Shown here: piece by piece, positions 2,201 through 63,671 of the stretch
Layout of the letters: every line of letters begins with the position of its first letter
Position numbering within the stretch: position 1 is the first letter of the stretch
NCBI GenBank assembly: GCA_963716565.1
Contig: OY970318.1
Span: 385,934 to 449,933 of the forward strand
Length of the DNA stretch: 64,000 nt
Reading direction: 5' to 3'
Source: an uncultured Candidatus Saccharibacteria bacterium
GTDB lineage: Bacteria; Patescibacteriota; Saccharimonadia; Saccharimonadales; CAIOMD01
Position numbers and translations under genes: made by a program
The notes under the pieces: generated by a model
Databases searched by the model: none
Seen by the model: the letters and a program-made list of their open reading frames with translations, nothing else
What the model was told of the DNA's origin: nothing

Positions 2201-2421
2201 CAAAATCTACACAAACAATTAGATGCCTGGTACTAGATTATGCTTAGCAATACCGGCCTGGTTTGTTGGAACCCAAGTTTATCACCTGCCACTTCTTGAC
2301 CAATTGGCTAATTTAGGCTACAATCGTGTAGCTTTTGAGCATGCTAAGGCTGAGCAGCTGGTTTACCATCGACCTCAGCAAATAGTAGCCAGAGAACTTG
2401 TAACACTTATAAGGAACTAAT

Positions 2422-2715: not shown

Positions 2716-2790
2716 GTAAAAGCCATAGTTTTCTATGGCTTTTAACATGTCAAACGACTAAACTAAAGACAGCTCATTTTAAAAACTGAT

Positions 2791-4756: not shown

Positions 4757-4841
4757 AAAGAAGTGCTTTTTTAATAGTACAGCTCTTATTCTGGTTGTTT
4801 ATGTGGTGACTAATGCAATAAGTCGTTATATAACAAGAATG

Positions 4842-6074: not shown

Positions 6075-6115
6075 TACCGTTTAGTGTACCATAATCCAAC
6101 AATTTCTATCTTAAC

Positions 6116-18935: not shown

Positions 18936-18964
18936 CGGGTCATTTAGTTCGCTAAAACCATTGC

Positions 18965-20062: not shown

Positions 20063-20235
20063 CAAAACCAGCTACAACAGATTGGCATTGATGAGTCCGA
20101 TTAGCCTTAGCCGGATATGGATTAAAGCCCTTATCTTTTAACGCCTGCAGTTTGCGCAGTCGTTCATCCCTTAACTCTTTTAGTGTAGCCATAACTTAAA
20201 AACTAGTATAACAAATAATGTCTGGGTGGGTTATG

Positions 20236-35771: not shown

Positions 35772-38700
35772 CTACTGAAGAGTTATCAAGATCCAAACAA
35801 GATTGTTGGCGTCTTTAGTACTAGTAGCTTTACCTAGTAAGGAGCCAGCACTTGGAGTAACTGAAACTGTGGCTATGCCTTCTTGATTACCGGCTATTAT
35901 CATGTCGCCACCAGCAACGGTTGTAAATCTATCTACCTGCACTTGCACATTACCACCTATGGCTACCCCTACTTCGTCACCCTCTGCAAAAGCCTCTTCT
36001 ACAATTACGCCTATAACCTTGGTATCACCTTCCGCCTCGGTGGTAGTTATATAGCCGTCTCTGGTATTGTCTATTACTACCACGCTACCGGCGGCAATTG
36101 GTTTGCTGGCATAGAACTTCTTAGTAATGGCCTGTCTGGTATTCACCTTGGCAGCTAATTGCAGGTCGCTACTAACACTCAAGTTAGCCACCTGAACATT
36201 ACCCGTTACGGTTAGGTTACCGGTGATAGTAGTTAGATTAAGATCAGAGTTGTATTGTAGATTGCTGCTTAGAGTAGCCACTCTGCTACTTAGTTCTTCT
36301 ATGGTTTGTTGTTGTTGTTGAATAGCGGTAGCTAAGTATGGGGTTAGACCAGCGTAAGAGATAGACTTAATGCCCTGGGCGTCGGTATAGACTAAGTCTG
36401 GGAAGAGTTGTTCGTACTCTTGAGCGATGAAGCCAACGTGTAAGGTGTCAGTCTCGGCATCGGCTAGCATGTGGTAAGACACTGTTCTAAGGCCTAGTAT
36501 CTGATTTAGGGCATCACCATAGGTTGTGATGTCTTTCTTGAGTCTTTCGTCGGAAGTACAGGTTATACCGCCAGCCGTATTGGGGGTAACCGTACAGGTG
36601 CCACCAGCGTTTTCAAAGCGGGCTACGGCAGTGCCATCGGCTACTGAAGCACTGCCAACATGTAACAGATAGCCTGGGGAGGTGTTGGAGATACCAACGT
36701 TGCCAGCCATAATAGCCATTTTGCCTTGGTCTAAGTTCAGTATCTGCCCAGTTTGGAAGCTAAAACTGCTAATATTATTCTCTTGAACTGCTAGAATATT
36801 TTGACGGATACCAAAGTCGTAAATACGCAGAACGTCCAAAGCCCCGCTATAAATACCGCCATAAACATACATATTATTGTTGTAGACTACGGCAGCATGG
36901 TAATACCTGGTATAGCTACCATCAGTAACACCGGACGACCAAGTATTAGCAGCAAAGTTATAAATCCGCACCGTACCAAAGACTCCGCTGCTATAACCGC
37001 CAAAGACATACATATTATTGTTGTAGACTGCAGCAGAGTGAGCATATCTGCCATAAGTACCGTCTGACGCTCCGGCCGACCAGGCATCAGTTGTAAAGTT
37101 ATAAATACGCAAACTACCATCGTAATTGCCGTCATAAACGTACATTTTATCACCGTAAACCACTGCGGCGTGTCTGTATCTGGTTATCCCTGTATCGGCA
37201 GTCCCGGCCGACCAGCTGCCTGTAGCGAAATCATAGATTCGCATAGTGTCTAGAGCGCTACCGTCAAAACCGCCAAAAACATACATTTTATTGTTGTAGA
37301 CTACGGCAGAATGTTGCAGCCTACCATTACCAGTGTCGGCAGTCCCGGCCGACCAGCTGCCTGTAGCAAAATCATAGATTCGCATAGTGTCTAGGGCGAT
37401 ACTGCCATTACCACCACCATAAACATACATTTTATTGTTGTAGACTACGGCAGAATGGTAGCCCCTGATATTACCTGTATCGGCAGTCCCGGCCGACCAG
37501 CTGCCTGTAGCGAAATCATAAACTCGCAAAGTATCTAAATAGCTGCCACCATTAATTCCACCAAAAACATACATTTTATTGTTGTAGACTACGGCAGAGT
37601 GAGCATATCTGGCATAACTGGTATCTGAGGTACCGGAAGACCAAGTGGCAGTTACGTCATATGTAACATTTTTATTAACTACAAGGGGGTTATTAGTGGA
37701 TGTGGAGTTCAAGCTAGCGCCGGCATCAGCGTTAAGTTTGGCGGCAGTATGTATAGCATTACCTGCCACATCTAAAGCATAGCCTGGCATAGCCGTACCA
37801 ATCCCCACATTCCCGCTACTGTCAATTACCAATCTGTCACCGGTACCTAATCCGGTTGTAGAGATCTTAAATTTATCACTATCACTATCGTCTATTCCCA
37901 TAGTGAATAGATTAGTGCCATCGGTTAGCTCAAAGCCAATCTGGGAGTCGTAATCACCAGCATTGGTATTAGACACTGTTAGTTGGGTTAGAGCTGTGCC
38001 AGTGTTCATTACTTCTAGCTTTTGGTCAGGCGAAGTGTCGCCGATGCCAACGTTACCACCATCGGCCACTCTAAGTACACTTGCCGCGTCGTGCTGAACA
38101 TCAAAATACCCAGTACCGCTAACGTTATAAACCATATTGTAATTACCTTGGGTAATGGTCGTGTTTTCAGAAAGTGTTCCGCCCAATTTTACGTTTGGCG
38201 CAGTTGCCGTTAAGCCGTTGGAAGCTGTTACATCTGGGTTGATGCTCGCCCAGATGGAGCCATCCCAGTACATAAGTTTCTTGGTGTCCTTTTGAACCCT
38301 TACATCGCCTATAGCATTGGAAGAAGTTCCCGTAAAGTAACAGTCCGTGGGTATACCGTAACCACCGGCATTAGACCACGACAATCCATCAGTGCCATAC
38401 TTTGCGTTGCCTCCAGAACTTGATGCTCTTTCCAAAAAGATTCTATCACCACTTATATATGCCGTGACTAACCAATATGTAGTACTTTGGGTGAGATTAG
38501 CATTCGAAAAGCTATAATAATAAGCATCGCCCGCATTTGGACCAGGAGTTACAGTACTATCGCTAGTTGCCACGAGCGTACCAGGTACACCTCCATTGTT
38601 TGTATATATATAACCCCTTAAAGTTGTAGACGAGGCGTTAGTATTTGACCTACTTTGCCAAAACTGATAAATGCCCATACCATTACCAGTAATGTCCTCC

Positions 38701-41699: not shown

Positions 41700-41723
41700 A
41701 TTTTTATTGTTTTATGTTTTACA

Positions 41724-44700
41724 TTATTCAAAAACAAAGTAATTAAATTTATACACTGCCTGCTCTAGCGGAGATTGTTTTAGGTAAATGAAGAACTTAT
41801 CTTGAGTAGCGTCTGCGGAATAACGCAAACCAGCTGCTTCTGCATTGCTAGGAGTTAGGATTACTTTTGGATTCTTATTGAATTGCTTATTAAATACCAA
41901 TTCTGCAAATGCCTCATTAACCGCCGTACCCTCCCCCGTTGTAACGGTAATCGTTCCGCCTGTATCATTGCCCATCACTTCAGTTATAGCTCCCTCTCCA
42001 GCGGCGATACCTGGAGTAACGGTTGGCGTATCACCAGCCGAGATAATGTGACCGTTTACAGTAATATTGCCCACACTTAGATTGTCTTTAACTACTACTG
42101 AGCCTTCAAAGATAGCTTGGTCGGTAACGGTTAGACTAGCTACGTTAACTGTATTAACTTGTAAGTGATTTAGCTCAACATCACCGGAGGCGCTTAATAA
42201 GCTCTGAACCGTGGCTAGACCTTCTGATACTAATGATATTTCGGTATTTAAATCATCTATCTGACTAGTGTTTACAGCAATTTCTGCCTGTTGTTCTTGG
42301 ATGCCCTTAATAACTATCGGAATAAGACCTTCATACTTGATGTTATTTATCTCTCCATTTTTCCAGCCGACTATTTCTGGGAATAGTTCGTTTACTTCTT
42401 CGGCAATTAGTCCGTAGTCGTGTATCCCGCCATCGGCAGCCAAAGTATTGCTAGACGCCTTCCAGTCAAAACTGACCGGTCTTAACTGATCTATGGCCGA
42501 CAAGGCACTATCTAGATTTTGAACGTTTTCTTTGTACTTGATAGACGACAACGAGCAACTGGCGCCACGGGTTATTTCGTAGTTAGTGGTTTCCCAGCAC
42601 ATGTAATAACCACTCGAGCCACTGGGTAGATAGTCCATGAAGTAGTGAGGGTCAGGACTTCCCGAGTCAAATTCCATCATCGGGGTGGCAAGATCCTCTG
42701 GGAATATACTAAATAACGTGCCACCCTTCCATAGCTGGAATGAATGATTGCCGGTTCCGGCCGGGCCGAATTGCATTTGGGCATTAGTGTCATCAATAAA
42801 TATACTGCCCTGAGTACTAAGCCCAGCAGTGGCAGACAGATAGCCATAAATTGTTGCAGGGCCATTAACTACCAGATAGTCATTCATGGTTGCAGTACCA
42901 TTAACGACCAAGTCGTTGCCTACGGTTGTGGTGGTTTCGCCAACGGTGAGAAGTGGGGTGCCAAAAGCATCTACTACTTCTAGAACACCTTTAACGCGTA
43001 AAGCATTACTTGAATAATCACCTATGATTGTTGATGCAAATTCAGCTGATGGGTCGCTAGTTGCAGCAGCAGGACCGCCAGCGATAGCCGTGGGGTCACT
43101 AGTGCTAGCTGAAGGACTACTAGTACTAGCCGAGGGATCGCTGACGGTGGCAGTTGGGCTGCCACAATAAAGACCACAGCCAACGATATCGCCTTGAGAA
43201 TCGAGCTTAGCTAAGAAGATATTGTAGTTATAGTTGTTGTCAAAACTATCAGTGCCACCCGTAATTGCATAACCACCATCGGCAGTTTGAATTATATAAT
43301 AAGTCGTTTCGTATCCGCCGCCGCCAAAGGTTGTATCCCAAGAAAGATTGCCACTGCCATCAAACTTAGCTATATAGGAGTCGCCGCTAGTATTATAAGT
43401 AACACCCGTAACGGCAAATCCAAACGCGCCGCCACCATCATCAGTCTGCGTCAAAGAGTACCCTTCATCATAGTCTCCGATTCCTCCGTCCCAAGTTTTA
43501 TCCCAAGAAATGTTACCACTGCCGTCGAACTTGGCTATAAACATATCTCCATCGCTATCTTCTAATTCGGTATAGCCAGTTATGGCGTAGCCGCCATCAG
43601 CAGCCTGAACGACTTGATACCCATAATCGAATCCAGAACCTCCCCAGATGGTACTCCAAGAAAGATTGCCACTACCATCGAACTTGGCTATGTAGGCTTC
43701 TTCATCACCGCTGCCATAACTATCGGTTTCGCCAGTTATGGCATAGCCACTATCAGCAGTCTGGATTATTGAGGCGCTATCATCATATTCGGTACCGCCC
43801 CAAATTAGGTCCCAAGAAAGATTGCCACCACCATCGTATTTAGCAATGAATGCATCACAATTTACACTATAACTGCAAGTATCGCCAGTGAGTGCATATC
43901 CGCCGTCAGCGGTTTGAACTATCGAATCACCACCATCATACTCGGTACCACCCCAAAGTACATCCCAAGAAAGATTGCCGCTGCTGTCGTATTTAGCAAC
44001 GAACGCATCATAATAACCACTGCCGTAACTTCTGGTATAACCACTTACTACGTAACCACCGTCAGCAGTTTGAACTATTGATTGACCAATATCGCTGTTT
44101 GCTCCGCCCCAAGTCTTAGCCCAAGATAAATTAAGATCACTGTCATATTTAAGTATGACCATGTCTTCGCTACCGCTGCCATAGCTGCTGGTGTAACCAG
44201 TTACTGCATAGCCACCGTCAGCAGTTTGTACCACAGTATGACCATAATCGGCATCATAACTATTGTAATCCCCCCACACCACCACACTACTCATATAACT
44301 ATCAAAGGAATCTTCGTTAGTAACAGTTACTTGCATATTAGTAGTGTCGGCGTTTAGTAGGCCAACGTTAGAGCTGTTCTGGACAACAAAGGCCGAGTTG
44401 GCATCGGACTCAACTGTAGCATTGCCATTTACAAAGGTGTCTTGGTTGAGGTTTATCTGGGTAGCGTTGGTAGTACCAATGTTTAGAGCGGCAGCCGTAT
44501 TGGCGTCTAGCAGCGGAGTTAACAAGCTGGTGCCCAGTATGCCGGTGCCAGATATGTTCATGTGGCCAACTTGTTGGGTGCCGGGAGTGCTCGCTTGCAG
44601 CTCAACATTGCTACCACCACCAGCTCCCTCTAACAAATCCTTATTAATAGTCCCGTTATAAAAGTACAGGTTGGTGCCATTCCACCATAAATCACCACTA

Positions 44701-48364: not shown

Positions 48365-48560
48365 ATAGAAAATGCAAATTATGTGTTCAGTAAAAGTTTG
48401 GTAAAAAACTAATGTTTTTAGTGCTGAATAGTAGTCTTTAATACTACATTACAGACATTGATAGTAAAACTTTCTAGCTTAGGCCTTTTGTTTTTTGTTG
48501 TAATAATTATTACAGATTCCAAAAAACAAATTATTTATCCACAGCTTGTTTATGTTTTTC

Positions 48561-51500
48561 TTACTCAATTATAAAGTAGTTAAACTCGTACGTAACTTGC
48601 TCTAGCGGCGATTGCTCTATAAGACGTATCAAGAATTTGTCCACTGTTCCGTCGGCGTAGTAAAGCAAATCAGACGTTTCAATATTGCTTGGAGTTAGTA
48701 CTACCCTGGGTTGTCTGCTAAATGGTTTGCTAAAAACAAGCTCCACCAAATCGTTAGTCGTAGTACCCTCCCCCGTTGTAACGGTAATCGTTCCGCCTGT
48801 ATCATTGCCCATCACTTCAGTTATAGCTCCCTCTCCAGCGGCGATACCTGGAGTAACGGTTGGCGTATCACCAGCCGAGATAATGTGACCGTTTACAGTA
48901 ATATTGCCCACACTTAGATTGTCTTTAACTACTACTGAGCCTTCAAAGATAGCTTGGTCGGTAACGGTTAGACTAGCTACGTTAACTGTATTAACTTGTA
49001 AGTGATTTAGCTCAACATCACCGGAGGCGCTTAATAAGCTCTGAACCGTGGCTAGACCTTCTGATACTAATGATATTTCGGTATTTAAATCATCTATCTG
49101 ACTAGTGTTTACAGCAATTTCTGCCTGTTGTTCTTGGATGCCCTTAATAACTATCGGAATAAGACCTTCATACTTGATGTTATTTATCTCTCCATTTTTC
49201 CAGCCGACTATTTCTGGGAATAGTTCGTTTACTTCTTCGGCAATTAGTCCGTAGTCGTGTATCCCGCCATCGGCAGCCAAAGTATTGCTAGACGCCTTCC
49301 AGTCAAAACTGACCGGTCTTAACTGATCTATGGCCGACAAGGCACTATCTAGATTTTGAACGTTTTCTTTGTACTTGATAGACGACAACGAGCAACTGGC
49401 GCCACGGGTTATTTCGTAGTTAGTGGTTTCCCAGCACATGTAATAACCACTCGAGCCACTGGGTACGTGATCCATGTAGTAATGAGGCGTGGGGCTTCCC
49501 GAGTCAAATTCCATCATTGGACTGGCAAGATCTTCTCCGGTTATATTGAATAACGTGCCACCCTTCCATAGCTGGAATGAATGATTGCCGGTTCCGGCCG
49601 GGCCGAATTGCATTTGGGCATTAGTGTTATCAATAAATATACTGCCCTGCGTGCTAGGCCCAGCAGTGGCAGACAGATAGCCATAAATTGTTGCAGGGCC
49701 ATTAACTACCAGATAGTCATTCATGGTTGCAGTACCATTAACGACCAAGTCGTTGCCTACGGTTGTGGTGGTTTCGCCAACGGTGAGGAGTGGAAGGCCT
49801 GGATCGTCTAATGTTGCCATTTCAAACCCCGCCATCATCATACCGCCACCTCCGACCGGAGGTAATCCTGATGCTACTTCTAAGACACCTTTAACACGTA
49901 GCGCATCAATCTGGTAACCGCCTGCGATAGAAACGGAGTAGGCCGATGGGTCACTAGTCGTAGCAGCAGGATTCGCAACTATAGCTGTTTGGCTCGTTGT
50001 GATATACGCTGGGCTATAGGCACTCATGCTGGGGTCGCGAATTGTTACGCTTGGAGTGTAACAATGCGCACCACAACCAACAATATTACCCTGAAAATCG
50101 AATTTGGCTAAAATCATATTAATATTAAGATCAATGGGCTGGCTGTCACCAACAACCATAAAGCCGCCACTAGTAATCTTAACCATATCCCATCCTATGC
50201 CCCAATCGTATGGGAGGCCCGTAGTTACAAAGTTTTCTACCCACAAGAAATTGCCGCTGCTATCAAATTTGGCTAGCGACAGCTCGTAATCAGAGGTAGA
50301 ATTCAGCATGGTGCCCGCTATAACATAGCCACCATCGGCAGTTTGAACAATTGCATTGCTTTCGTCGATGTCGTTATAGGGACTGCTTAAAGTCCTATCC
50401 CACATCAGATTGCCACTGCTATCAAATTTAGCTATGAACATGTCATCGTCAGCGCCATATACATCATCGTTTACATCTGTTGTGCCGGTAATAGCATAGC
50501 CCCCATCAGCCGTTTCAATTATGGAACTACCGTATTCGTACGTATATCCTCCGCTGTCCCACTGCCTGGATAGCAAAAGATTGCCACTGGCATCAATCTT
50601 CATAAAAAACATGGCCCAGCCACCGCCACTACCATCGCCGCTACCCGTGATTAAATAACCACCGTCAGAAGTCTGAGCCATCTTTGTTTTATAGCCAAAA
50701 CTCAGATCACTATCACCGTACGTTTTAGTCCACAAAAGATTGCCACTGCTGTCGTAATTAGCCAGAAAATAGTTACTGTAGCTGGTACCGGCATAAAAGC
50801 TATTAGTTTGACCACCAACCATATAATCACCGTCGACAGTTTCAAAAACACTAAAGCCCCTTTCTTGATGCTGGTCACCATCGCCAGCCCATATTGCATC
50901 CCATAACAAATTACCACTACCATCATATTTAGCAATAAACATATCTTCACAATTGCCAGGGGAGTAGGAACTACAAGTAGTAACTTCAAAACTTCCGCTC
51001 TCTCCGGTTATTACGTAACCGCCGTCACTAGTTTGTATTATAGAATACCCTATATCTGATCTCGTACCACCCCAAGTTCTATCCCATTGCAGATTTAAGT
51101 TACTATCATATTTGGCTATAAGCGCATTATTAGAATCAGGATAGCCCGCAGCAAAATATTCTGTATAACCGGTAACGGCGTAACCGCCGTCGGCAGTTTG
51201 AACAACCGAGTGACCTCTTTCGCTTTTAAAGCCATCGTATACCCTATCTCCCCACACCACCACACTACTCATATAACTATCAAAGGAATCTTCGTTAGTA
51301 ACAGTTACTTGCATATTAGTAGTGTCGGCGTTTAGTAGGCCAACGTTAGAGCTGTTCTGGACAACAAAGGCCGAGTTGGCATCGGACTCAACTGTAGCAT
51401 TGCCATTTACAAAGGTGTCTTGGTTGAGGTTTATCTGGGTAGCGTTGGTAGTACCAATGTTTAGAGCGGCAGCCGTATTGGCGTCTAGCAGCGGAGTTAA

Positions 51501-54500: not shown

Positions 54501-55115
54501 ATTGAAGTAGTTATTGCTGGCAGCCGACCAAATAGGATCGGTTTCGGCAGTTAGATAGCCAGACAGGTTGATGTTTGGGACATCAATTACATCACCGCTA
54601 TTGCCAGTTGTAACGATCATTTGGTATTCATCGCCATCGTAGAAGTACAGCTGGTTGGTTTGGTTGTCGACGTAGATTTGGCCAATGCTAGGACTGGTTG
54701 GAGCATCGCCGGGAGTGATTACGACTGAACCATTGACCTGGAGGTGGCCGTTAATGTCTAGTCGGCTAATTTGGCCAAGCAAGGAGTTAAGGTCAATACC
54801 AGAACCGTCAAGCGACAAAGACACCAGGGTGTAGGTATCGCCTTGAGCTGTATCCCCTGTTGGGGGCTTTCGTAACTGGCTGAATATGGCAACTAGAATG
54901 ATGATTAACAAACAGGTCAGCAAACCATAAACCATCATCCAGGTTCGGCGCTTTTTAGATTGGTAGCCGGGATAAGGTTGTGATGGGGCTGGTGTTACTG
55001 GTGCTACTGGGGAGGTGGTGCTGTTTTCTAGCACGCTGGGCTGGGGCACAACAATGCCGTCTGACATGGGGCTGATGGTTGGTGGAGTTGGGGTTGGCGT
55101 AATGTCTGGGTTCAT
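48561..55115 (-). CDS. giant fibre protein G3 (2184 aa): paralog of G2 with a diverged SBBP propeller and partly diverged C-terminal module
   Basis: Same N-terminus, TM and first ~660 aa as G2 (DNA identical at a 6981-bp offset). Blades of the form YDGSGNLLWDxxW with longer inserts. Same variant-B S74 domain. C-terminal ..FSKPFSRQPRVVLTPSNIETSDLLYYADGTVDKFLIRLIEQSPLEQVTYEFNYFIIE. Confidence 0.8.
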   Translation of the reverse strand: MNPDITPTPTPPTISPMSDGIVVPQPSVLENSTTSPVAPVTPAPSQPYPGYQSKKRRTWMMVYGLLTCLLIIILVAIFSQLRKPPTGDTAQGDTYTLVSLSLDGSGIDLNSLLGQISRLDINGHLQVNGSVVITPGDAPTSPSIGQIYVDNQTNQLYFYDGDEYQMIVTTGNSGDVIDVPNINLSGYLTAETDPIWSAASNNYFNLNQNETVTGNPSFTSGLTTTSLTVNNLFTAGIVTNTAAGVLGTVATVPLANGGTNANLTASNGGIVWTNATQMQVLAGTGTAGLCLLSGSNATPTWGACAGGASMFNPMSTLGDLIYGGLAGTPTRLGGNTTTDTYVLTSIGDGINTNIPSWSALSLGGLGGVPTSRTLSINGTSYDLSANRSWSVGDMLLGTAQSVTALKTFDNSMLAMKGTSTGVTTIATANTSANNYTLTLPAATGVVALTSDLHSAVTLGTANGLGLSTQQLSLALASAATTGALSDTDWNIFNNKQPAGSYLTAEADDLADVTGRGANTSTASAFNGGLTASSLTVNNLSTAGIVTNTAAGVIGTVATVDVVNGGTGAATFAQYGVLYGNTTSAIQATAAGATGQCLIGTTGAAPSWGACGVGGSGMNSLTLAGSSGTPQSITDTDTITIAQGTNITTVAGATDTVTISTVDNPTFATSTTTPTVYGSTAANGTLTLQGNSAVAGNTATNANLVFKVGDAGATTAMTIRNNGYVGVGTAAPATQLEVSGTGANVGSTVNAPLGYSATQYFAENGANKWHNESAPGGASFSIVESSIATQRMTVLVTSGNVGISNSSPDQKLEVMSATAANTQITVSNTNAGSYDSQFGFELADGTNAFTIGVDDSDTDKFKISTTALGTNDRLVVISTGSIGIGDTSPLALLTVGSGDLFRVNTSGQIATAAGITSSGTITLSGLSTSGVVTNTAAGVLGTVAAVGVANGGTGETTLTQYGVLYGRGINAVGATSAGITGQCFIAVTGAAPAWGSCAGAGAGMTVLTLAGSSGTPQSITDTDTITIAQGTNITTVAGATDTVTISTVANPVFATSTTTPTVYGSTAANGTLVLQGTTSGGNTLTNANLQFKVGDAGATTAMTILNNGYVGVGIAAPTARLQVAAATTSEASLNVTASAGGVNPAAPNSGDLWWNGTNLYFYNGTINTDLLAGITENNIDLQLYTPGTQQVGHMNISGTGILGTSLLTPLLDANTAAALNIGTTNATQINLNQDTFVNGNATVESDANSAFVVQNSSNVGLLNADTTNMQVTVTNEDSFDSYMSSVVVWGDRVYDGFKSERGHSVVQTADGGYAVTGYTEYFAAGYPDSNNALIAKYDSNLNLQWDRTWGGTRSDIGYSIIQTSDGGYVITGESGSFEVTTCSSYSPGNCEDMFIAKYDGSGNLLWDAIWAGDGDQHQERGFSVFETVDGDYMVGGQTNSFYAGTSYSNYFLANYDSSGNLLWTKTYGDSDLSFGYKTKMAQTSDGGYLITGSGDGSGGGWAMFFMKIDASGNLLLSRQWDSGGYTYEYGSSIIETADGGYAITGTTDVNDDVYGADDDMFIAKFDSSGNLMWDRTLSSPYNDIDESNAIVQTADGGYVIAGTMLNSTSDYELSLAKFDSSGNFLWVENFVTTGLPYDWGIGWDMVKITSGGFMVVGDSQPIDLNINMILAKFDFQGNIVGCGAHCYTPSVTIRDPSMSAYSPAYITTSQTAIVANPAATTSDPSAYSVSIAGGYQIDALRVKGVLEVASGLPPVGGGGMMMAGFEMATLDDPGLPLLTVGETTTTVGNDLVVNGTATMNDYLVVNGPATIYGYLSATAGPSTQGSIFIDNTNAQMQFGPAGTGNHSFQLWKGGTLFNITGEDLASPMMEFDSGSPTPHYYMDHVPSGSSGYYMCWETTNYEITRGASCSLSSIKYKENVQNLDSALSAIDQLRPVSFDWKASSNTLAADGGIHDYGLIAEEVNELFPEIVGWKNGEINNIKYEGLIPIVIKGIQEQQAEIAVNTSQIDDLNTEISLVSEGLATVQSLLSASGDVELNHLQVNTVNVASLTVTDQAIFEGSVVVKDNLSVGNITVNGHIISAGDTPTVTPGIAAGEGAITEVMGNDTGGTITVTTGEGTTTNDLVELVFSKPFSRQPRVVLTPSNIETSDLLYYADGTVDKFLIRLIEQSPLEQVTYEFNYFIIE
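50065..51255 (-). other. SBBP-type beta-propeller of G3 (diverged from G2)
   Basis: VVQTADGGYAVTGYT..ALIAKYDSNLNLQWDRTWGG.. through ..FQGNIVGCGAHCYTPS. Confidence 0.55.
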
Positions 55116-55306: not shown

Positions 55307-55539
55307 ACTAAGGCTATTGTGGGCCCACTACCTCTGAACTTCAAGACATAAAATGTAAAAAAAGTATTCATTCGAAGCTTGGTAAAATACGGTTGTCTCA
55401 CAGTACAAATAGTAGTCATTAATACTACAGTTAAGACAGGGGGTTGCGCTATGCCCCATCTTTATAACTAGAAATATGTTGTAATTACCAATACAGCTGC
55501 TAGCGCTACTCAATACTTATCCACAACTAAAATTTTATT

Positions 55540-58500
55540 TTATTCAATTACTACGTAATCAAAGATGTAGGTAGTATTTTCTTGTGGCAATTGTGTGAGG
55601 TTAATAGTAAAGCCGTCTGATGAAGCACCTCTAAAGATGTTCAATTCGGCGGCATTGGCATCACCTGCCGTTAATATAACTCTTGGCTGCTTGCCAAATG
55701 GTCTATTAAATATCAACTCTACCAATTTATCGGCCAATACATTCTTGCCCGTAGTAATTGTTATGGTTCCGCTGGTGTCATTGCCTAGTACTTCGGTTAC
55801 GGCTCCTTCGCCGGCGGCGACACCAGCTACTATTGTAGGCGTCTCACCAGCGGAGATGATATGCCCATTAACACTCAAGTTAGCCACCTGAACATTACCC
55901 GTTACGGTTAAGTTACCGGTGATAGTAGTTAGATTAAGATCAGAGTTGTATTGTAGATTGCTGCTTAGAGTAGCCACTCTGCTACTTAGTTCTTCTATGG
56001 TTTGTTGTTGTTGTTGAATAGCGGTAGCTAAGTATGGGGTTAGACCAGCGTAAGAGATAGACTTAATGCCCTGGGCGTCGGTATAGACTAAGTCTGGGAA
56101 GAGTTGTTCGTACTCTTGAGCGATGAAGCCAACGTGTAAGGTGTCAGTCTCGGCATCGGCTAGCATGTGGTAAGACACTGTTCTAAGGCCTAGTATCTGA
56201 TTTAGGGCATCACCATAGGTTGTGATGTCTTTCTTGAGTCTTTCGTCGGAAGTACAGGTTATACCGCCAGCCGTATTGGGGGTAACCGTACAGGTGCCAC
56301 CAGCGTTTTCAAAGCGGGCTACGGCAGTGCCATCGGCTACTGAAGCACTGCCAACATGTAACAGATAGCCTGGGGAGGTGTTGGAGATACCCAGATTACC
56401 GGCAGAATTAACGCGAAGTCGTTCTGCGTTATTTGAATATATTGCCGTATACGGTGATCCGCTGTTTGTGCTTACATAAACTCCGCCATATATCGTGCTA
56501 AGACCACTATCATACGCAAGCCAACTAGACGTTCCCGTAGATGATATCACTGCAAGATAGCTCGCATTTCTATTAACACTTTCAACCACAACTGTTGCGT
56601 TAGAAGCAACGTCTCCTGTGTTTGCAGTATTATAGACGTGCAATGAACGCCCTAACGTTGTTATTGGGCTGCCTGTTCCTATCCCCATGTTTCCGCTACT
56701 ATCAATCACCAGCCTGTCATTAGTGCCTAATCCCGTAGTAGAGATCTTGAACTTATCACTATCACTGTCGTCTACACCCATAGTAAATAGGTTCGTGCCG
56801 TCAGTTAGCTCAAAGCCAATTTGGCTATCGTAATCACCAGCGTTAGTATTAGATACTGTTATCTGAGTTAAGGCCGTGCCAGTGTTCATTACTTCTAGCT
56901 TTTGGTCAGGAGAGATGTCGCCGATGCCAAGGTAACCAGCAGTAGTCACCCTAAAGCCTACATTCCACGACGACACTGTTGAGCCAGCGGCTACGCCTGA
57001 GCTATACAAAAGACTAAAGTAATCGCTATTTTTTTGAAGTTGGTAGTTAGAACCAGCATCAGAACTAATCCAGTTTGTACCGTTAAAATACGAATCGAAC
57101 GCCATAGCCATGTTGTCATGCGACTGATTAAGCTGTTGATAAAGCGGATAGGTGTCGGCGGATGTGAATATCTTAATATGAGGTCCAGCTGCTGCACTTG
57201 AGTCTGTACCAGAAAGCGTCAATTTACTATCCGGGCTACTTGCCCCAATACCAATATTACCAGCGAAGTAGTTATTGTTAGCTGAGCTATTGTAAATGCC
57301 AAAGCTGCCGCTTGGTGCCGTTGATGTGCCCATTAACAAATACGTGTTGTTGGTCGCGCCAGCAAGCGAATTAATATTTATGCCAACTTTATTGGTGTTA
57401 GCTTGTACGCCATCAATATAAATTCCCTTCCCAGTCGTCACCGTGCCAGCAACAGTTCCTTGATAAATGTACAGCGGTACTAGTTCGGTGGTAGCCGTAC
57501 TAGCACTAGTGTTAGTGTATACTTCTATGCCTCGCATACTAGAAATTGCACCGCCACCAGTTAGATTATTACCAACAATAAAACGAGAGTTTCTAAACAC
57601 TGCTTGATTGGATGCGGAGCTAGCCGTCAAGGTACGGGCTACCACTAATGACATATCTGCTGTATCGGCAGTATTAACTTGAGTCTGCGTAACCCCAATA
57701 CCAACAGTTGGACCAGATGCAGCAACTTGATCGCTAACATTAAGTCTATAAGAAGGGCTAGCAGTGCCTATGCCAACATTACCTAGGTCATTAACTACCA
57801 ATGCAACTGCGTTGCTAGAATCCCTAGCAATTAGAATGGCTGGCAGTTTATCCGGGCTAGCGTCGTTGGCATTATCACTAAAGGCAGTATTTACAGTTAA
57901 ACTGGTGTTAGAAGCAATGGCGGTGACTGTTCTGGTTTCGCCAGTTACGGTTATTCGATCACCAACTACTAGTTCGGTAGTAAATAAGGTACCTACGCCT
58001 GTTACGGTGGTAGAAGCAGTTGGATCAATACTACCCGTTAAAACACTTGTAGCTGCACCAGTAAAACGACCAGATCCAGCAACATCAAGTTTGGTCAAAG
58101 GCGTAGTAGTGTTAACGCCTACATTCCCAGTAAAATAGCTAGTTCCAGTTATTGTGTTAACGTTAAAGTAAGAAGCCCCAAGTCTATTCACCACATTTAG
58201 AATTGTTCCGTCGCTTGCAGTAGACGAAAGCTGCCCTATGGTTACGTCTTTATCATTCACCAGCAAGGCCCCCCTCGTTCTGCCAGCACCAGCTTTCATA
58301 ACTTCGAAAATACCAGTTGGGTTAGTAGTGCCGATGCCCACATTACCGGAACTATCAATTCGCAAGCGCTCTGATTTTGCTGTAGCACCAATTGCAGTGG
58401 TAGAAAATGTAAAATATGAGCCCCTAGCCGACTCGGTGAAGTTTTCTGCTGCAAACATTTTAATTGCGGCAGCAGTTTCCGTTCCCCAAGTTGACACCCC

Positions 58501-61500
58501 ATAGCCGGAACCTGCAAGGCCACCGAGCTGATCATCAGCCAGGACGGCAGTCGGCGAAGCGGCAGTTCCCCTTGCCCTTCTTGCAACAAACGCAGAACCG
58601 CTTGATGTGCCATAACTACTAAGTGTCATTTTTAGGTCAGCATCACTCGACAACTCTAGCAAAGAACTCGGGGCTGTCGTCCCTATCCCAACATAGCCAC
58701 TGGTATTCATGACGCTTAATCTATTTACGTTGTTGGTTCTAAGATGAAAATCATGTGACGTCATAGATCCAGCAAAAACACTACTACTACCACCCGAAAC
58801 ACCCATAACAAACTCTATATCATTTGTTACGTCCCTACCCATAAAATATGCTTGACCGGAACCCTGCACAGAAATGGCTGAGTCCATTTGTGCTTGACTT
58901 ATAAGAGCTGGAGAACTTTCTATGCTTTGCCCGGGTTGCACAACTGAAAGACGAAAAGTTGGAGCCGTAGTGCCAATACCAACATTGCCATTCATCATAA
59001 AAGCTGAATATGTTCCATCGCCGTTCAAATAGGCGGGTTTAGCGTTTGAATATAAAGCATAGCTACTACCGGCTAGGTCAGAAGCAGAGCCAAGAGTCGC
59101 ATAACCAGATGAGTTCACCCTACCAGTAACAACGGATGCACCATTGCCAAACAAAACCCCCCCCGTACCAGCATCGTAACTAAGGTAGACGGAACCAGTA
59201 CTATAAGGATTAAGAACTAAATTATTTGTCGCGACTCCTCTTATTGATGGAACAGTCGGCGAGTTAACACCACCCGAGTAAATATCTAAATAGCTACCAA
59301 CACTTAAATTCTGCCTTGGGGCTGTATTGCCACTGATACCAATATTCCCACTACTATCTATTACTAGCCTGTCATTAGTACCTAATGCAGTGGTAGAGAT
59401 TTTGAATTTATCACTATCGCTATCATCTACACCAAGCGTAAAAGTATTTGTGCCATCGGCCAGCTCAAAGCCGATTTGGGCATCATAGCTACCGGCATTG
59501 ATGTTGGAAACTGTCAACTGGGTATTAGCCGCCGTAGCACTCATAACTTCTAGTCTTTGGTCGGATGAAGAGTCGCCGATACCAACATTACCGCTACTTA
59601 ATATTCTCATCGATTCCGTAAGGGTTGAATCCGTTACGTTGCGTCGAGTAGAAAAGATAATATCCCCCCTGGTGTTACTACTGCCGTCGGTGACGTATCC
59701 TTTAATTGCAGCAAATTTCCACTGTTGGCTACCAGCACTGAAAACAATAGCCCCTCCGTTTCCGACTGCTCCTCCTGCACCACCATCTAATAGCAAAGCG
59801 CCTCCCATTGCCCCTGCTGTATTAAAATCTCCAGTAGTTTGACCAGTTCCTGTCACAACAAGCTGAGATTGGGGGTTGGTAGCTCCTACTCCCACATAAC
59901 CATTGTTTAGAATAGTCATAGCCGTAGTCGCACCAGCGTCACCAACCTTGAACTGTAAGTTAGCGTTAGTTAGGGTGTTGCCAGCTACAGCCGAGTTGCC
60001 TTGTAGGGTTAGAGTACCATTAGCAGCTGTTGAACCGTAAACGGTTGGGGTAGTTGTGGATGTGGCGAAAGTTGGGTTGTCGACAGTGCTAATCGTTACG
60101 GTGTCAGTAGCTCCAGCTACGGTAGTGATGTTAGTACCTTGAGCTATGGTAATAGTGTCGGTGTCGGTAATGGATTGGGGGGTACCACTGCTACCGGCTA
60201 GGGTTAAGGAGTTCATGCCACTGCCACCTACTCCACAAGCTCCCCAGCTAGGTGCCGCTCCAGTAGTGCCAATTAGACATTGGCCAGTTGCACCGGCGGC
60301 TGTAGCTTGGATAGCGCTAGTAGTATTGCCGTACAGAACGCCGTATTGAGCGAAGGTAGCGGCACCAGTACCACCGTTAACTACGTCTACGGTAGCTACG
60401 GTACCAATTACTCCAGCCGCCGTGTTAGTGACTATGCCAGCAGTAGATAGGTTGTTAACCGTTAGGCTACTAGCCGTTAGGCCACCATTGAAGGCGGAAG
60501 CTGTAGAAGTATTAGCCCCTCTACCAGTAACGTCAGCTAGGTCGTCGGCTTCGGCAGTCAGGTAGCTGCCAGCTGGTTGTTTGTTATTGAAGATATTCCA
60601 ATCGGTGTCGCTTAAAGCACCAGTGGTAGCAGCCGAAGCTAGAGCTAAGCTGAGTTGTTGGGTGCTTAAGCCCAGTCCGTTAGCGGTACCTAGGGTGACG
60701 GCACTATGTAAGTCGCTAGTTAAAGCTACTACGCCAGTAGCGGCTGGTAGGGTTAGAGTGTAGTTGTTAGCTGAGGTGTTAGCCGTAGCAATAGTAGTAA
60801 CGCCAGTGGATGTACCTTTCATGGCCAGCATAGAGTTGTCGAAGGTCTTTAGAGCAGTAACGCTTTGGGCAGTACCCAGTAGCATGTCCCCTACACTCCA
60901 GCTGCGGTTAGCCGTTAGATCATAGCTGGTGCCGTTAATGCTGAGAGTTCGGGAGGTGGGGACGCCACCACCTGGGCACACATCCCAGCTAGGAGTAGTA
61001 TTAGAGCCAGACAATAAACACAGTCCAGCGGTAGCTGTGCCAGATAATACTTGCATTTGAGTGGCGCTAGTCCAGACAATACCACCATTGCTGGCTGTTA
61101 GGTCAGCGTTAGTGCCACCGTTAGCCAGTGGAACAGTAGCTACGGTACCAATTACTCCAGCCGCGGTGTTAGTGACCATGCCGGCGGTGTTAAGGGCAGA
61201 AAATGTTATTGTTCCAGAGCTAGTTATGCCAGCAGCTGCAGCAATTTGACCGCTAGTATTTACCTGGAATAAATCGCCGCTACCAACCGTCAACATGGCT
61301 AATGGAGAGGTATCGCCAATGCCAAAGTTGCCAGCCGCAAACCTACCCCATTCAGTAACAAGACCTGTAGTGCCAGCTCCAAAAATCATCGGTCGGCTAG
61401 ATGAACCATTAAGAATATTTAGGCTTGTAGTAGCCGAGGAGGCACGTATAAAAGCCGCTGATGGATTTGAGGTACCACTAGAACTAAGACCTATTTCTAT

Positions 61501-62478
61501 AATTCGACCAGTATCGTTTACCGCTTGTATAGACGCAAAAGCGTTTGTTCCATTGGAAGCGTTCGTAAAGCTAATCCCCCGGTACCAGGAATCACTATTT
61601 ACCCTAACATCTAGCGGATAGCTCGGAGTGCTAGTGCCAACACCTATAGCTGTATCAAATATACCCGTACCACTTATCCAAAAATTGGCCGTTTGGGCTG
61701 ATGTGTTCTGGTTTTGAATATAATTACCACTTCCTGAGCCAGCCAAAGCAAAATCACTGGCCTCATAACCATCTAGTAGATCAGCGTTAAGATTAGTGAC
61801 CTTGTAGTTAGAATCTACCCCAAATGGGGCTGATGAACCAGCAGTACCACCATTGAAGGCTGGAATGCCAGTGACTACTTCGTTCTGGTTGAGATTGAAG
61901 TAGTTAGCCTTGGCTGTTGACCAACTGGGATCGGTTTCGTTAGTTAGAAAGCCCGATACATTGACAGTCGGAATGTTGATGTCTGGGATGTCAATGACGT
62001 CACCGCTGTTGCCGGCCGTAACGATCATCTGGTATTCATCGCCATCGTAGAAGTACAGCTGGTTGGTTTGGTTGTCGACGTAGATTTGGCCAATGACAGG
62101 GTTGGCTGGAGCTTCACTGGGAGTAACTACTACCGAACCGTTAACTCGAAGATTACCATTGATGTCTAGTTGGCTGATTTGGCCTAGGGCGGAGGCAAGG
62201 TCGGTGCCAGAACTATTAATTGGCAAGGATAACAAAGTGTAAGCACCGTCTTGGCTAGGGCCGGTCTGCGAAGCCTGTCGCATCTTGCCAGCCAAAGCAA
62301 CCAATAAGACTACCAACAAGCTGGTAAGCACAATAAATAACACAGGCCACATTCTCTTTTTCGAAGGGTTGGCCTCAACAACAGACGCTCGCAGCACAGG
62401 ATGTTCTGGTAATTTTGAAGCCATCGCCGTTGTAGGGCGCGGGTTTTTCACTGGTTCTTCGATATAATCAATATCCAC
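55540..62478 (-). CDS. giant fibre protein G4 (2312 aa): distinct cytoplasmic N-terminus, TM anchor, tail-fibre-like repeats, ~12 GNVGIGTTxP-headed beta-repeats (no propeller), S74 chaperone domain (variant A), C-terminal beta module
   Basis: GTG start at 62478 (an ATG alternative lies at 62424). After the TM it shares the G1-type tail-fibre N-terminal region. The repeats are GNFGIGDTSP/GNVGIGTTAP/GNVGIGTTNP/GNIGIGASSP... C-terminus has the same SDERLKKDITTYGDALNQ... block as G1 (~55960-56250), followed by NGHIISAGETPTIVAGVAAGEGAVTEVLGNDTSGTITITTG...YIFDYVVIE. Confidence 0.8.
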   Translation of the reverse strand: MDIDYIEEPVKNPRPTTAMASKLPEHPVLRASVVEANPSKKRMWPVLFIVLTSLLVVLLVALAGKMRQASQTGPSQDGAYTLLSLPINSSGTDLASALGQISQLDINGNLRVNGSVVVTPSEAPANPVIGQIYVDNQTNQLYFYDGDEYQMIVTAGNSGDVIDIPDINIPTVNVSGFLTNETDPSWSTAKANYFNLNQNEVVTGIPAFNGGTAGSSAPFGVDSNYKVTNLNADLLDGYEASDFALAGSGSGNYIQNQNTSAQTANFWISGTGIFDTAIGVGTSTPSYPLDVRVNSDSWYRGISFTNASNGTNAFASIQAVNDTGRIIEIGLSSSGTSNPSAAFIRASSATTSLNILNGSSSRPMIFGAGTTGLVTEWGRFAAGNFGIGDTSPLAMLTVGSGDLFQVNTSGQIAAAAGITSSGTITFSALNTAGMVTNTAAGVIGTVATVPLANGGTNADLTASNGGIVWTSATQMQVLSGTATAGLCLLSGSNTTPSWDVCPGGGVPTSRTLSINGTSYDLTANRSWSVGDMLLGTAQSVTALKTFDNSMLAMKGTSTGVTTIATANTSANNYTLTLPAATGVVALTSDLHSAVTLGTANGLGLSTQQLSLALASAATTGALSDTDWNIFNNKQPAGSYLTAEADDLADVTGRGANTSTASAFNGGLTASSLTVNNLSTAGIVTNTAAGVIGTVATVDVVNGGTGAATFAQYGVLYGNTTSAIQATAAGATGQCLIGTTGAAPSWGACGVGGSGMNSLTLAGSSGTPQSITDTDTITIAQGTNITTVAGATDTVTISTVDNPTFATSTTTPTVYGSTAANGTLTLQGNSAVAGNTLTNANLQFKVGDAGATTAMTILNNGYVGVGATNPQSQLVVTGTGQTTGDFNTAGAMGGALLLDGGAGGAVGNGGAIVFSAGSQQWKFAAIKGYVTDGSSNTRGDIIFSTRRNVTDSTLTESMRILSSGNVGIGDSSSDQRLEVMSATAANTQLTVSNINAGSYDAQIGFELADGTNTFTLGVDDSDSDKFKISTTALGTNDRLVIDSSGNIGISGNTAPRQNLSVGSYLDIYSGGVNSPTVPSIRGVATNNLVLNPYSTGSVYLSYDAGTGGVLFGNGASVVTGRVNSSGYATLGSASDLAGSSYALYSNAKPAYLNGDGTYSAFMMNGNVGIGTTAPTFRLSVVQPGQSIESSPALISQAQMDSAISVQGSGQAYFMGRDVTNDIEFVMGVSGGSSSVFAGSMTSHDFHLRTNNVNRLSVMNTSGYVGIGTTAPSSLLELSSDADLKMTLSSYGTSSGSAFVARRARGTAASPTAVLADDQLGGLAGSGYGVSTWGTETAAAIKMFAAENFTESARGSYFTFSTTAIGATAKSERLRIDSSGNVGIGTTNPTGIFEVMKAGAGRTRGALLVNDKDVTIGQLSSTASDGTILNVVNRLGASYFNVNTITGTSYFTGNVGVNTTTPLTKLDVAGSGRFTGAATSVLTGSIDPTASTTVTGVGTLFTTELVVGDRITVTGETRTVTAIASNTSLTVNTAFSDNANDASPDKLPAILIARDSSNAVALVVNDLGNVGIGTASPSYRLNVSDQVAASGPTVGIGVTQTQVNTADTADMSLVVARTLTASSASNQAVFRNSRFIVGNNLTGGGAISSMRGIEVYTNTSASTATTELVPLYIYQGTVAGTVTTGKGIYIDGVQANTNKVGININSLAGATNNTYLLMGTSTAPSGSFGIYNSSANNNYFAGNIGIGASSPDSKLTLSGTDSSAAAGPHIKIFTSADTYPLYQQLNQSHDNMAMAFDSYFNGTNWISSDAGSNYQLQKNSDYFSLLYSSGVAAGSTVSSWNVGFRVTTAGYLGIGDISPDQKLEVMNTGTALTQITVSNTNAGDYDSQIGFELTDGTNLFTMGVDDSDSDKFKISTTGLGTNDRLVIDSSGNMGIGTGSPITTLGRSLHVYNTANTGDVASNATVVVESVNRNASYLAVISSTGTSSWLAYDSGLSTIYGGVYVSTNSGSPYTAIYSNNAERLRVNSAGNLGISNTSPGYLLHVGSASVADGTAVARFENAGGTCTVTPNTAGGITCTSDERLKKDITTYGDALNQILGLRTVSYHMLADAETDTLHVGFIAQEYEQLFPDLVYTDAQGIKSISYAGLTPYLATAIQQQQQTIEELSSRVATLSSNLQYNSDLNLTTITGNLTVTGNVQVANLSVNGHIISAGETPTIVAGVAAGEGAVTEVLGNDTSGTITITTGKNVLADKLVELIFNRPFGKQPRVILTAGDANAAELNIFRGASSDGFTINLTQLPQENTTYIFDYVVIE

Positions 62479-62631
62479 CGCCAGCCCTACCCTTTCACCT
62501 TAGTCGAAGAGATCAAATTATATATCATTTGCCTTTTGGTTTGTTTACCCCTCATACAATCTGTATACATTTTCTCTGCATTTACTCTCTATTACAAGAT
62601 AAAAATACACTTTTTTTGTTCAATAAAATAA

Positions 62632-62645
62632 CCCTCGAAAGAGGG
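62632..62645 (-). terminator. putative intrinsic terminator for the upstream minus-strand gene (hairpin CCCTC-TTTC-GAGGG followed by TTATTTTATTG on the minus strand)
   Basis: Plus strand reads aaCCCTCgaaaGAGGGcatttt. A T-rich tract follows on the minus strand, ~165 nt downstream of the 62808 stop. Confidence 0.4.
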
Positions 62646-62807
62646 CATTTTAACCAATTATACGTAGTTTAAGCAACAACGGTACAGATTAAAAAGTTCA
62701 TATAATTATAGATACCATCAGTTGAAATCGTTGTATTAATTATAACTAATACAGATTGCGCATATGCTTTATCCACACATCATTGCATTAAACTAAATAA
62801 GATATGT

Positions 62808-63671
62808 CTATAGCGTTATTACAAGATACATTGACGCGACCGCTATAACTGCTATTAGAGCCGTCATGGACATAGCCTGGGCCAAAGAGCCATAAATTGT
62901 GGATTTTGCCAGCGGATTACGGCCAGCGGCAATGATAGAACTTTTAACAGAGCTATAAGCGATTACTATTATAGATATAAGCCCAATTATTGCGATGGCC
63001 ACGCACACAGTCAAGCGCAAAGCCGAAACTGGTTTGCCTGCAATTTTAGCAGCCCACTTCTCTATTGCGTTTAAATCGTTATCTTCATTAGATGTTATTG
63101 AATTTACCCCAATTTGGATGGGAATATAACCAACATAAACGTCTATAGTCCTGCCTTGATCATCTATGGCCGTTTCTTCTTGTGCATTTTCACTATTCTG
63201 GCTAAAGGCTGCTTGGGCAACGCCTATCACCCTATCGCCATCCTGAGCTTTAGCACCTACACCGTTTATTGATGATTGGGCGATAAAGTCGCCAGTACTG
63301 ATATCGCCAGCAAGATTGGTCACTATAGCCATGGCTTGACCGCTTATTGCAACTTGTACTTTGTTACTTTCTGAATTAACCGCTAGCAACGAATCTCCCA
63401 ATTCGACAGCTACCCCTAATAGGTATTCACTGTTTTGCTTGCTGGCCAATACAACCTCTTTGTCATCGTCTTTGCTTAAACTTACCAGATTACCCGATAC
63501 AATCTCTTCTTCGGTAGAAAAGGACTTAGAAAGATTCTCGGCAGCCGCAATTGCAACAATACCCGTAACTCCCGTAGCCAAGAAACCTAGGGTGCAGATC
63601 CCAATAATACTTACAATTCTGCTCGTCGCCTGTTTAAAACGCGCCAGGTTGTGCTTAGATATGACTTTCAT
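62808..63671 (-). CDS. membrane protein, function unknown (N-terminal TM, ~200-aa extracytoplasmic domain, two C-terminal TM helices)
   Basis: 287 aa with hydrophobic segments at aa 20-45 and 225-285. No recognisable motif. Confidence 0.4.
   Translation of the reverse strand: MKVISKHNLARFKQATSRIVSIIGICTLGFLATGVTGIVAIAAAENLSKSFSTEEEIVSGNLVSLSKDDDKEVVLASKQNSEYLLGVAVELGDSLLAVNSESNKVQVAISGQAMAIVTNLAGDISTGDFIAQSSINGVGAKAQDGDRVIGVAQAAFSQNSENAQEETAIDDQGRTIDVYVGYIPIQIGVNSITSNEDNDLNAIEKWAAKIAGKPVSALRLTVCVAIAIIGLISIIVIAYSSVKSSIIAAGRNPLAKSTIYGSLAQAMSMTALIAVIAVASMYLVITL

Follow-up and report, generated by a model that had tools for sequence, protein, structure and literature searches.

What is encoded by the run of GNVGIGTTxP-headed repeats in the last of four long tandem genes, and does this run form, as the first-pass annotation of this DNA proposed, the receptor-binding domain of a tail fibre? 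The stretch analysed (the window, 64,000 nucleotides of contig OY970318.1, positions 385,934 to 449,933) carries these genes, here called G1 to G4, as a tandem block in its right-hand ~27 kb (35772-62478), the repeats being those of G4. The analysis indicates that the four genes probably code for membrane-anchored trimeric fibres, folded by a Peptidase_S74 (S74) domain and provided with interchangeable outer parts, in which a chain of beta-helices in G4 replaces the propellers of the other three.

The G4 repeats find their closest solved relatives in the mosaic adhesive trimer (MAT) fibres of Bdellovibrio, which contain intertwined trimeric beta-helix domains of ~95-135 amino acids (aa) bounded by capping loops (PMC10769870). 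When the PDB was searched by sequence with the G4 array, the matches were limited to four Bdellovibrio fibre chain sequences and one chance match: 8OML (Bd1334) was matched by G4 aa 1291-1393 (E 6.9e-10), 8OL4 / 8ONF (Bd2439) by aa 1284-1394 (E 9e-9), 8ON4 (Bd1334) by aa ~1303-1393 (E 5e-8) and 8OND (Bd2133) by aa 1246-1543 (E 3e-4), the entries being assigned to proteins according to the data-availability section of Caulton et al. 2024 (PMC10769870). Each G4 module opens with the capping-loop motif G(N/Y)xG(I/V)G..P...L, and its heads agree with the capping-loop sequences LVGIGTATPAAPLH and AVGIGTTNPSGILH of the MAT fibres (PMC10769870, Supplementary Fig. 18), a consensus motif that has been found in MyRF too (PMC10769870). 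An AlphaFold2 monomer model of G4 aa 1150-1580, made from an alignment of 26 sequences (mean pLDDT 60.6, pTM 0.34, with pLDDT 70-88 around the heads), was compared with the PDB using Foldseek, and all of the 15 best matches were Bdellovibrio MAT fibres (8OML with E 5.6e-9; 8ONC, the Bd3182 beta-helix domain, with a TM-score of 0.65), followed by phage T5 pb1 and T4 gp34. Because of the PDB sequence matches, the agreement of the capping loops and the best Foldseek matches, the repeats are identified, at the level of sequence and model, as a chain of MAT-type shaft modules in which the GNVGIGTTxP head is the capping loop.

Twelve heads are recognised in G4 with the loose motif G[NY]xG[IV][GSN]..P (at aa 860, 963, this one without the proline, 1044, 1164, 1261, 1378, 1451, 1566, 1740, 1848, 1929 and 2027, together spanning nucleotides 59901 down to 56400), against a mean of 0.0025 when the G4 sequence is shuffled; two further heads, in degenerate form, begin at aa 1592 and 1698. 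The array stops at S2077, the serine of S74. The ~12 repeats counted in the first-pass annotation are therefore recovered, although their span is 56251-59901 and not 56480-59870, and the strict motif fits only five of the heads. Beyond the head, the units (73-174 aa) are weakly homologous over their full length, with 23-33% identity (unit 1261 and unit 860, for example, share 29% over 129 aa). The head, which had been described as a feature of G4, occurs also three times in G1 and four times each in G2 and G3. A database search with the array retrieved 893 proteins at E <= 0.001 among 8000 candidates scored, many of them with S74; the named ones come from the Candidate Phyla Radiation (CPR; Uhrbacteria, Moranbacteria, Nomurabacteria, Yonathbacteria) and from Bdellovibrio-like predators, and public annotation calls such CPR proteins 'tail fiber domain-containing'. 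At least 12 heads were counted in 25 of the 119 homologs listed, with a maximum of 21, and on this comparison the length of the G4 array appears ordinary for the family and not very unusual. The G4 run is, thus, not a discrete terminal receptor-binding domain, being made of generic trimeric beta-helix shaft modules that are present also in G1-G3 and in hundreds of other proteins.

These properties could also be expected of a mere spacer that sets fibre length, with specificity residing in the propellers of G1-G3 and in a domain that follows S74. The units are generic, the head motif and an 81-aa module being present in all four proteins and long arrays being found in the homologs mentioned above; no conserved pocket residues are visible in units of such variable length; and the last unit is almost identical to that of G1 (see below). 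Against a pure spacer stand the ~900 aa of the G4 array without a close counterpart in G1-G3, which would exceed what a spacer needs, and the precedent of Bd3182, in which capping loops bound a cleft just before S74, which the authors likened to those seen in T5 pb1 and K1F as well as to the O-antigen site of the P22 tailspike (PMC10769870). A role restricted to spacing is, on balance, doubtful.

The slot occupied by the array in G4 holds propellers in the other three genes, and the comparison of the paralogs agrees with the original observation that the region between the stalk and S74 differs in each copy. G1 contains the six Kelch blades previously placed at 36790-37650, six repeats of ~48 aa each being supported by Kelch families with E 1e-44 to 2e-48 over aa ~1327-1573 (PF01344, 149.7 bits; PF24681, 164.8 bits). 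G2 and G3 contain seven QTADGGY...AK[YF]D.SGN repeats each, and the propellers are 30-60% identical to each other, while their flanking blocks are 98.6-100% identical. The seven blades and their mutual divergence were, therefore, correctly described, but not the name SBBP that was given to them: no match to PF06739 was listed for G2 or G3 at a maximum E-value of 10 (the HMMER filters drop most matches above ~0.1), and the label was rejected. G2 just passes DUF5122 instead (PF17164, 28.5 bits; cut-off 27). G3 has no significant Pfam match in its propeller (PF17164 at E 8.7). The nearest solved relative of the G2 propeller is CylK (E 6e-7). An additional feature of G1 is a pair of copies of a ~190-aa domain without Pfam match at aa 640-1215 (38057-39779), each preceded by the repeated stalk block VPTSRTLSINGTSYDL, as extra lateral domains.

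At the DNA level, the four genes are mosaics in which blocks of 92-100% identity abut unrelated or old sequence. G2 and G3 share 98.6% of the DNA over G2 aa 1-650 and 100% over aa 1049-1148 and over aa 1844-2043 (S74 and coiled coil); identity is 57% in the propeller, in which the proportion of synonymous differences (pS 0.76) is saturated, and 74% in the last 92 codons, with a synonymous divergence (dS) of ~1. A block of 523 nt (G4 aa 2030-2203) is 99.8% identical in G4 and G1 and holds nearly all of the last G4 unit (aa 2027-2076), and the 81-aa module, present twice in G4, is found again in G1 (aa 1215-1300), G2 (aa 796-881) and G3 (aa 797-881). The ratio of nonsynonymous to synonymous changes (dN/dS, Nei-Gojobori) between G2 and G3 is 0.1-0.5, below 1 in every segment in which it can be computed, the synonymous sites of the propeller being saturated. 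The picture suggested by these comparisons is one of old cassettes shuffled by recombination together with recent local gene conversion, rather than rapid change in place or hypermutation.

Related genomes show that the variation extends beyond the window. Three contigs of relatives keep the order (prfA, prmC,) lytR, parB, parA, with a fibre gene adjoining parA. The fibre gene of contig L002 combines a G1-type C-terminal domain with a G2-type S74 and has a glycine-rich module where G1 has Kelch, and that of L001 has a beta-helix array in the variable slot; the G1-type C-terminal domain is conserved in these two parA-adjacent genes. L003 has one fibre gene of 1507 aa (P0064, 643-5166) without propeller, with the same tail, transmembrane anchor and anchor module as G1-G4 and a G4-type C-terminal domain, which fills the entire gap between parA and the ortholog of the window gene 62808-63671. 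Because L003 has a single gene in the same interval between parA and this partner, the lineage of the window is seen, from gene order, to have expanded the locus from one fibre gene to four. Since the parA-adjacent relatives carry one gene or other modules, the comparison supports the view that whatever lies between the shared stalk and S74 can be exchanged as a cassette, between paralogs and between strains. The first-pass annotation had named uniform conservation across strains as the result that would speak against its proposal; conservation is not uniform, as L001 and L002 carry other modules and L003 a single, shorter gene.

Each gene contains one S74 domain (PF13884; 52.9 bits in G4, 54.2 in G1, 48.5 in G2 and 48.4 in G3; cut-off 22); NCBIfam contributed nothing of use. 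Its catalytic dyad lies in the motif SDERLK in G1 (aa 1716) and G4 (aa 2077) and in SSIKYK in G2 and G3, where serine and lysine are kept and the aspartate is replaced by serine; serine and lysine are invariant in an alignment of 21 sequences. In a model of G4 aa 2020-2312, the S74 part reaches pLDDT 86-93 and resembles most closely, in fold, the ICA domain of MyRF and the chaperone of K1F. S74 is not C-terminal, as ~180 aa follow its core, a further domain that had been left out of the first description and that is lectin-like in G2-G4 and cement-like in G1. The G4-type domain is present too in P0064, P0286 and P0338. The last ~90 aa of the G4 model form a beta-sandwich (pLDDT 68-89), whose Foldseek matches are weak (E 0.02-0.4) and include the H-type lectins 2CE6, 4Q56 and 3WMP (E 0.08-0.13, probability 0.80-0.92), a pyocin-fibre tip and a phage tailspike tip. 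The H_lectin family (PF09458) reaches 16.1 bits, below its cut-off of 24, with E 0.012 for G2 and 0.0075 in P0013.

This domain could be the real distal binding module, either with S74 remaining uncleaved or with a cleaved trimeric chaperone-plus-lectin piece that would still be functional, attached or released. It is in agreement with this that the complete identity of G2 and G3 over S74 and the coiled coil drops in precisely their last 92 codons, that the weak lectin matches and the fold resemblances (to Helix pomatia agglutinin, the coral lectin SLL-2 and the fibre and tailspike tips) fall on this domain, and that this C-terminal domain occurs in P0338, for which Pfam gives no S74 match. 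MyRF is a known case of an S74 domain with sequence downstream of it, and provides a precedent. On the other hand, the invariant serine and lysine lead to the expectation of cleavage, which would detach the domain from the anchored fibre, the lectin match remains below the Pfam cut-off with poor Foldseek values, and most of the database homologs examined end right after S74. We consider it unlikely, although worth keeping in view, that the binding domain lies here. Neither this reading nor the one of a spacer, to which we give about equal weight, is in conflict with the fibre model preferred here.

At the other end, each protein has a single strongly hydrophobic helix, preceded by KKR in G4 and by basic residues in G1-G3 (helix at aa 55-84), a pattern that fits a signal anchor with a predicted topology of N-terminus inside and C-terminus outside. 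It is followed by a conserved anchor-proximal module, which 446 proteins share at E <= 0.001 in an exhaustive HMMER search; of the 150 top-ranking cluster representatives, ~45 (proteins of 600-2500 aa) have the module in single copy at residues ~70-250, and these proteins carry S74, pectate-lyase beta-helix or other bodies. P0286 has the tail, the transmembrane helix, the anchor module, S74 and the C-terminal domain all as in G1-G4, in another chromosomal context. P0338 (1980 aa) has the same anchor module and, in the variable slot, a right-handed beta-helix of the pectate-lyase/NosD type, which is a frequent mark of polysaccharide-degrading enzymes; it is the complete one of two tandem fibre genes (2-838 and 1212-7154) on contig L005. 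Scans of genome and metagenome contig collections with the anchor module gave no confirmed relatives, and a word-indexed protein search found only short proteins with the common motif FNGG..APF.VDS...NLNADLLDG. The N-terminal domain of the Bdellovibrio MAT proteins was compared with this module using hhalign (profile of the window module against one of the Bdellovibrio-type domain, built from six database homologs), with a probability of 0.3% and E 0.19, and BLASTP gave no match before aa ~260.

The name tail fibre that was initially given to these proteins raises the possibility that they are alternative receptor-binding fibres of an integrated or infecting virus. S74 is a classic phage fibre module, the C-terminal parts have matches among the 'tail fiber protein' families of PHROGs (phrog_1980, 1.4e-16; phrog_9942, 3.8e-16), and the C-terminal domain of G1 reaches the Phage_cement_2 cut-off. 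However, no phage genes flank G1-G4 in the window annotation, where the neighbours are housekeeping genes: those for ParA, ParB, a signal peptidase, a LytR-family protein, PrmC, RF1 and S2 adjoin the downstream side of G1, and beyond S2 there are genes for an M50 protease, tRNA synthetases, FtsX, an S41 protease and a CHAP-domain protein. Three related contigs preserve the synteny of parA, parB, lytR, prfA, prmC and rpsB; all four proteins start with a cytoplasmic tail and a transmembrane anchor, which would be unexpected on a virion fibre; the beta-helix array matches one of 50,697 phage records, weakly, and is thus almost absent from cultured phages; and the closest solved relatives are cellular Bdellovibrio fibres. 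The prophage reading was rejected on genomic context and is very improbable. Sequences identical to the four proteins are present in public collections, all of them on one contig of 799,209 bp, and the setting is a bacterial chromosome, because of the parAB, prfA and rpsB neighbours, the size of this contig and a Saccharibacteria-like RF1. The nearest named homologs of RF1 belong to Candidatus Saccharibacteria/Saccharimonadales (70-72% identity), and metagenomic relatives without organism name reach 81-95%; from this one marker and the 0.8-Mb contig we infer that the organism would be a Saccharibacteria-like member of the CPR/Patescibacteria. A tRNA search of the window found none.

Table 1. 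Positions of the fibre genes, their domains and the adjoining partner gene in the window.
Feature	Position	Strand	Basis or remark
G1 fibre gene	35772-41699	minus	1975 aa; open reading frame (ORF) list and translation
G2 fibre gene	41724-48134	minus	2136 aa; ORF list and translation
G3 fibre gene	48561-55115	minus	2184 aa; ORF list and translation
G4 fibre gene	55540-62478	minus	2312 aa, GTG start; ORF list and translation
Partner gene	62808-63671	minus	287-aa membrane protein, motif AAGRNPLAKS; directly upstream of the fibre genes
Transmembrane helix, G4 aa ~41-68	62275..62358	minus	Hydropathy scan and positive-inside pattern
Anchor-proximal conserved module, G4 aa 77-247	61738..62250	minus	Common to G1-G4
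Mosaic stalk, G4 aa 248-859	59902..61737	minus	Blocks of 92-97% DNA identity to G1, G2, G3
Tandem array of 12 (up to 14) predicted MAT-type trimeric beta-helix modules, G4 aa 860-2076	56251..59901	minus	Capping-loop heads
81-aa module, first G4 copy (aa 963-1047)	59338..59592	minus	DNA comparison
81-aa module, second G4 copy (aa 1848-1932)	56683..56937	minus	DNA comparison
Peptidase_S74 core, G4 aa 2077-2132	56083..56250	minus	Ser2077 and Lys2082; helical extension to ~aa 2178
Post-S74 beta-sandwich, G4 aa ~2215-2312	55543..55836	minus	H-type-lectin-like, weak evidence
Post-S74 domain, G3	48564-~48840	minus	Same type as G4
Post-S74 domain, G2	41727-~42000	minus	Same type as G4
Post-S74 domain, G1 aa ~1854-1966	35802..36140	minus	Phage_cement_2 (PF09956), 24.0 bits = cut-off
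Six-blade Kelch propeller, G1 aa 1351-1636	36792..37649	minus	Kelch hidden Markov models and readable repeats
Seven-blade propeller, G2 aa 1297-1660	43155..44246	minus	DUF5122-like
Seven-blade propeller, G3 aa ~1300-1690	50046..51218	minus	Repeat reading

G1 and G2 are probably co-transcribed, because only 24 nt (41700-41723) separate the stop codon of G2 from the start of G1. Intergenic stretches of ~330-425 nt precede G2, G3 and G4 each, and the ~215 nt ahead of the start codon are identical in G2 and G3. A terminator-like hairpin is located at 62631-62646, after the gene upstream of G4; a promoter and terminator scan found no enrichment relative to shuffled sequence. Perfect copies of the 9-mer TTATCCACA (DnaA-box consensus) occur only three times in the window (48535-48543, 55517-55525 and 62769-62777), one ahead of each of G2, G3 and G4, where it follows the stop codon of the preceding gene at a distance of 15-31 nt, within partly homologous intergenic regions; 0.59 copies per window are expected by chance, and five of 100 shuffles reach three. 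The partner protein has transmembrane helices at both ends and a middle part weakly similar to the post-S74 domain of G1 (BLASTP E 0.006); orthologs of ~280 aa occupy the same position in L003 (3-197) and L004 (5176-5997), and it may be an anchoring or assembly partner of the fibres. Elsewhere in the window, SecA and a class II (Asp/Lys-type) tRNA synthetase are split into two or three overlapping ORFs (12070-14093 and 18231-20065), the relative L002 having a single synthetase gene of 502 aa where the window has split ORFs.

Taken together, G1-G4 would encode surface fibres, long and probably homotrimeric, in a bacterium of Saccharibacteria-like (CPR/Patescibacteria) affiliation. The N-terminal signal-anchor helix would fix the fibre in the cell membrane, from which the mosaic beta-structured stalk would project outward; in G4, ~12 triple-beta-helix modules would follow head to tail, each bounded by a capping loop, up to S74, which would drive folding of the trimer and then cut itself off at Ser2077. 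In the slot of the G1-G3 propellers, the G4 array would most likely be a segmented, solvent-exposed shaft that sets the reach of the fibre, and its modules may offer clefts like that of Bd3182. Scaling from the 370-residue tip of Bd2133 (142-150 Å) and the 782-aa Bd3182 (~550 Å) (PMC10769870), the array could add, as a rough estimate, ~45-50 nm to a fibre that may be more than 100 nm long in all. Cassette exchange between paralogs and between strains would diversify the genes. The likely role is the recognition of, and attachment to, the surface of a host bacterium, a proposal based on how cultured Saccharibacteria live, on the precedent set by MAT and on the expense of 27 kb in a genome of only 0.8 Mb. 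We infer the trimeric state, surface display, self-cleavage and binding of glycans or hosts; the binding site might lie in the array clefts, the propellers or the post-S74 domain, and four different ligand specificities, as first suggested, are plausible.

Several points weigh against this proposal. The G4 model is a low-confidence monomer of what is expected to be an intertwined trimer, with TM-scores mostly of 0.2-0.3. Judged by the DNA comparison, part of the G4 array cannot carry a specificity of its own, because the last unit is shared with G1 and two units are common to all four genes. Nothing points to positive selection: the dN/dS check proposed in the first-pass annotation gave no sign of it, the values for G2 and G3 being those given above. 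The ~130-aa N-terminal domain common to MAT proteins is, by profile and BLASTP comparison, absent in G1-G4. The post-S74 domain is unexplained by a simple model in which S74 is a discarded end. Finally, the split ORFs suggest assembly frameshift errors or pseudogenes, which touches on the trust placed in a near-identical tandem array.

By itself, the G4 stretch is a typical member of a module family already known. Its significance comes from the locus: a Saccharibacteria-like genome of ~0.8 Mb devotes ~27 kb to four fibre genes built from parts that also make up the Bdellovibrio prey-recognition fibres, and how ultrasmall CPR bacteria find and hold their hosts is poorly understood. A recent Saccharibacteria study calls the mechanism of host recognition by episymbionts largely unknown (PMC11623550), and the Saccharibacteria papers considered here name type IV pili and a few lectin-like proteins. 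The envelope factors listed as essential in a transposon sequencing study of Southlakia include pili, a type IV secretion system and VCBS, dockerin and FN3 proteins. Full-text searches found no literature linking Patescibacteria or Saccharibacteria to S74 or MAT-type fibres. In the supplementary files of the MAT paper, 'Candidatus' appears only twice (Uabimicrobium and an Omnitrophica bacterium), both times in the table of MAT proteins from other predator-associated organisms, which includes Micavibrio and Dokdonia as well, and a term search of these files gave no CPR names (PMC10769870). It can be speculated, tentatively, that Saccharibacteria and other CPR episymbionts have their own widespread family of membrane-anchored MAT-like fibres that decide to which host bacterium a cell can attach, that host range shifts by cassette exchange beside parAB, and that the internal S74 serves as a built-in cleavage site, at which, once the fibre is assembled, a soluble trimeric lectin-like head is released or a new tip uncovered; if true, host recognition by episymbionts would become accessible to genetics. 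Should the fibres be responsible for host attachment, their modules would mark host range and could be targeted in genetic tests.

Among known systems, the post-S74 domain of G2-G4 resembles in size and strand pattern the H-type lectins (Helix pomatia agglutinin, 2CE6; SLL-2, 3WMP; PF09458), although the profile and structural matches are weak and below curated thresholds. The MyRF ICA domain (7DC3), the best fold for the S74 of G4, is an S74-type domain in internal position, in which both flanks are functional after cleavage; MyRF is, however, a eukaryotic transcription factor with its anchor C-terminal to the cleavage site, whereas the anchor of G4 is N-terminal and cleavage would free the C-terminal piece. 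Phage T5 pb1 (4UW7, 4UW8) and the K1F endosialidase chaperone (3GW6), the next-best folds after MAT, have in common with G4 a trimeric beta-helix followed by a chaperone with a Ser-Lys dyad; compared with phage S74 fibres, G1-G4 are cellular and membrane-anchored, have a far longer array of capping loops and do not end in S74. [quoted passage not shown] They differ in having, after the signal peptide, the ~130-aa beta-rich domain (in all 21 MATs of HD100), in whose place G1-G4 have a cytoplasmic tail, a transmembrane signal anchor and an unrelated conserved module, and in their length (~1000 aa, compared with ~2000-2300 aa); G1-G4 differ, in turn, by the propellers inserted before the last beta-helix unit, by the extra domain after S74 and by the grouping of the four genes in one tandem block beside parAB.

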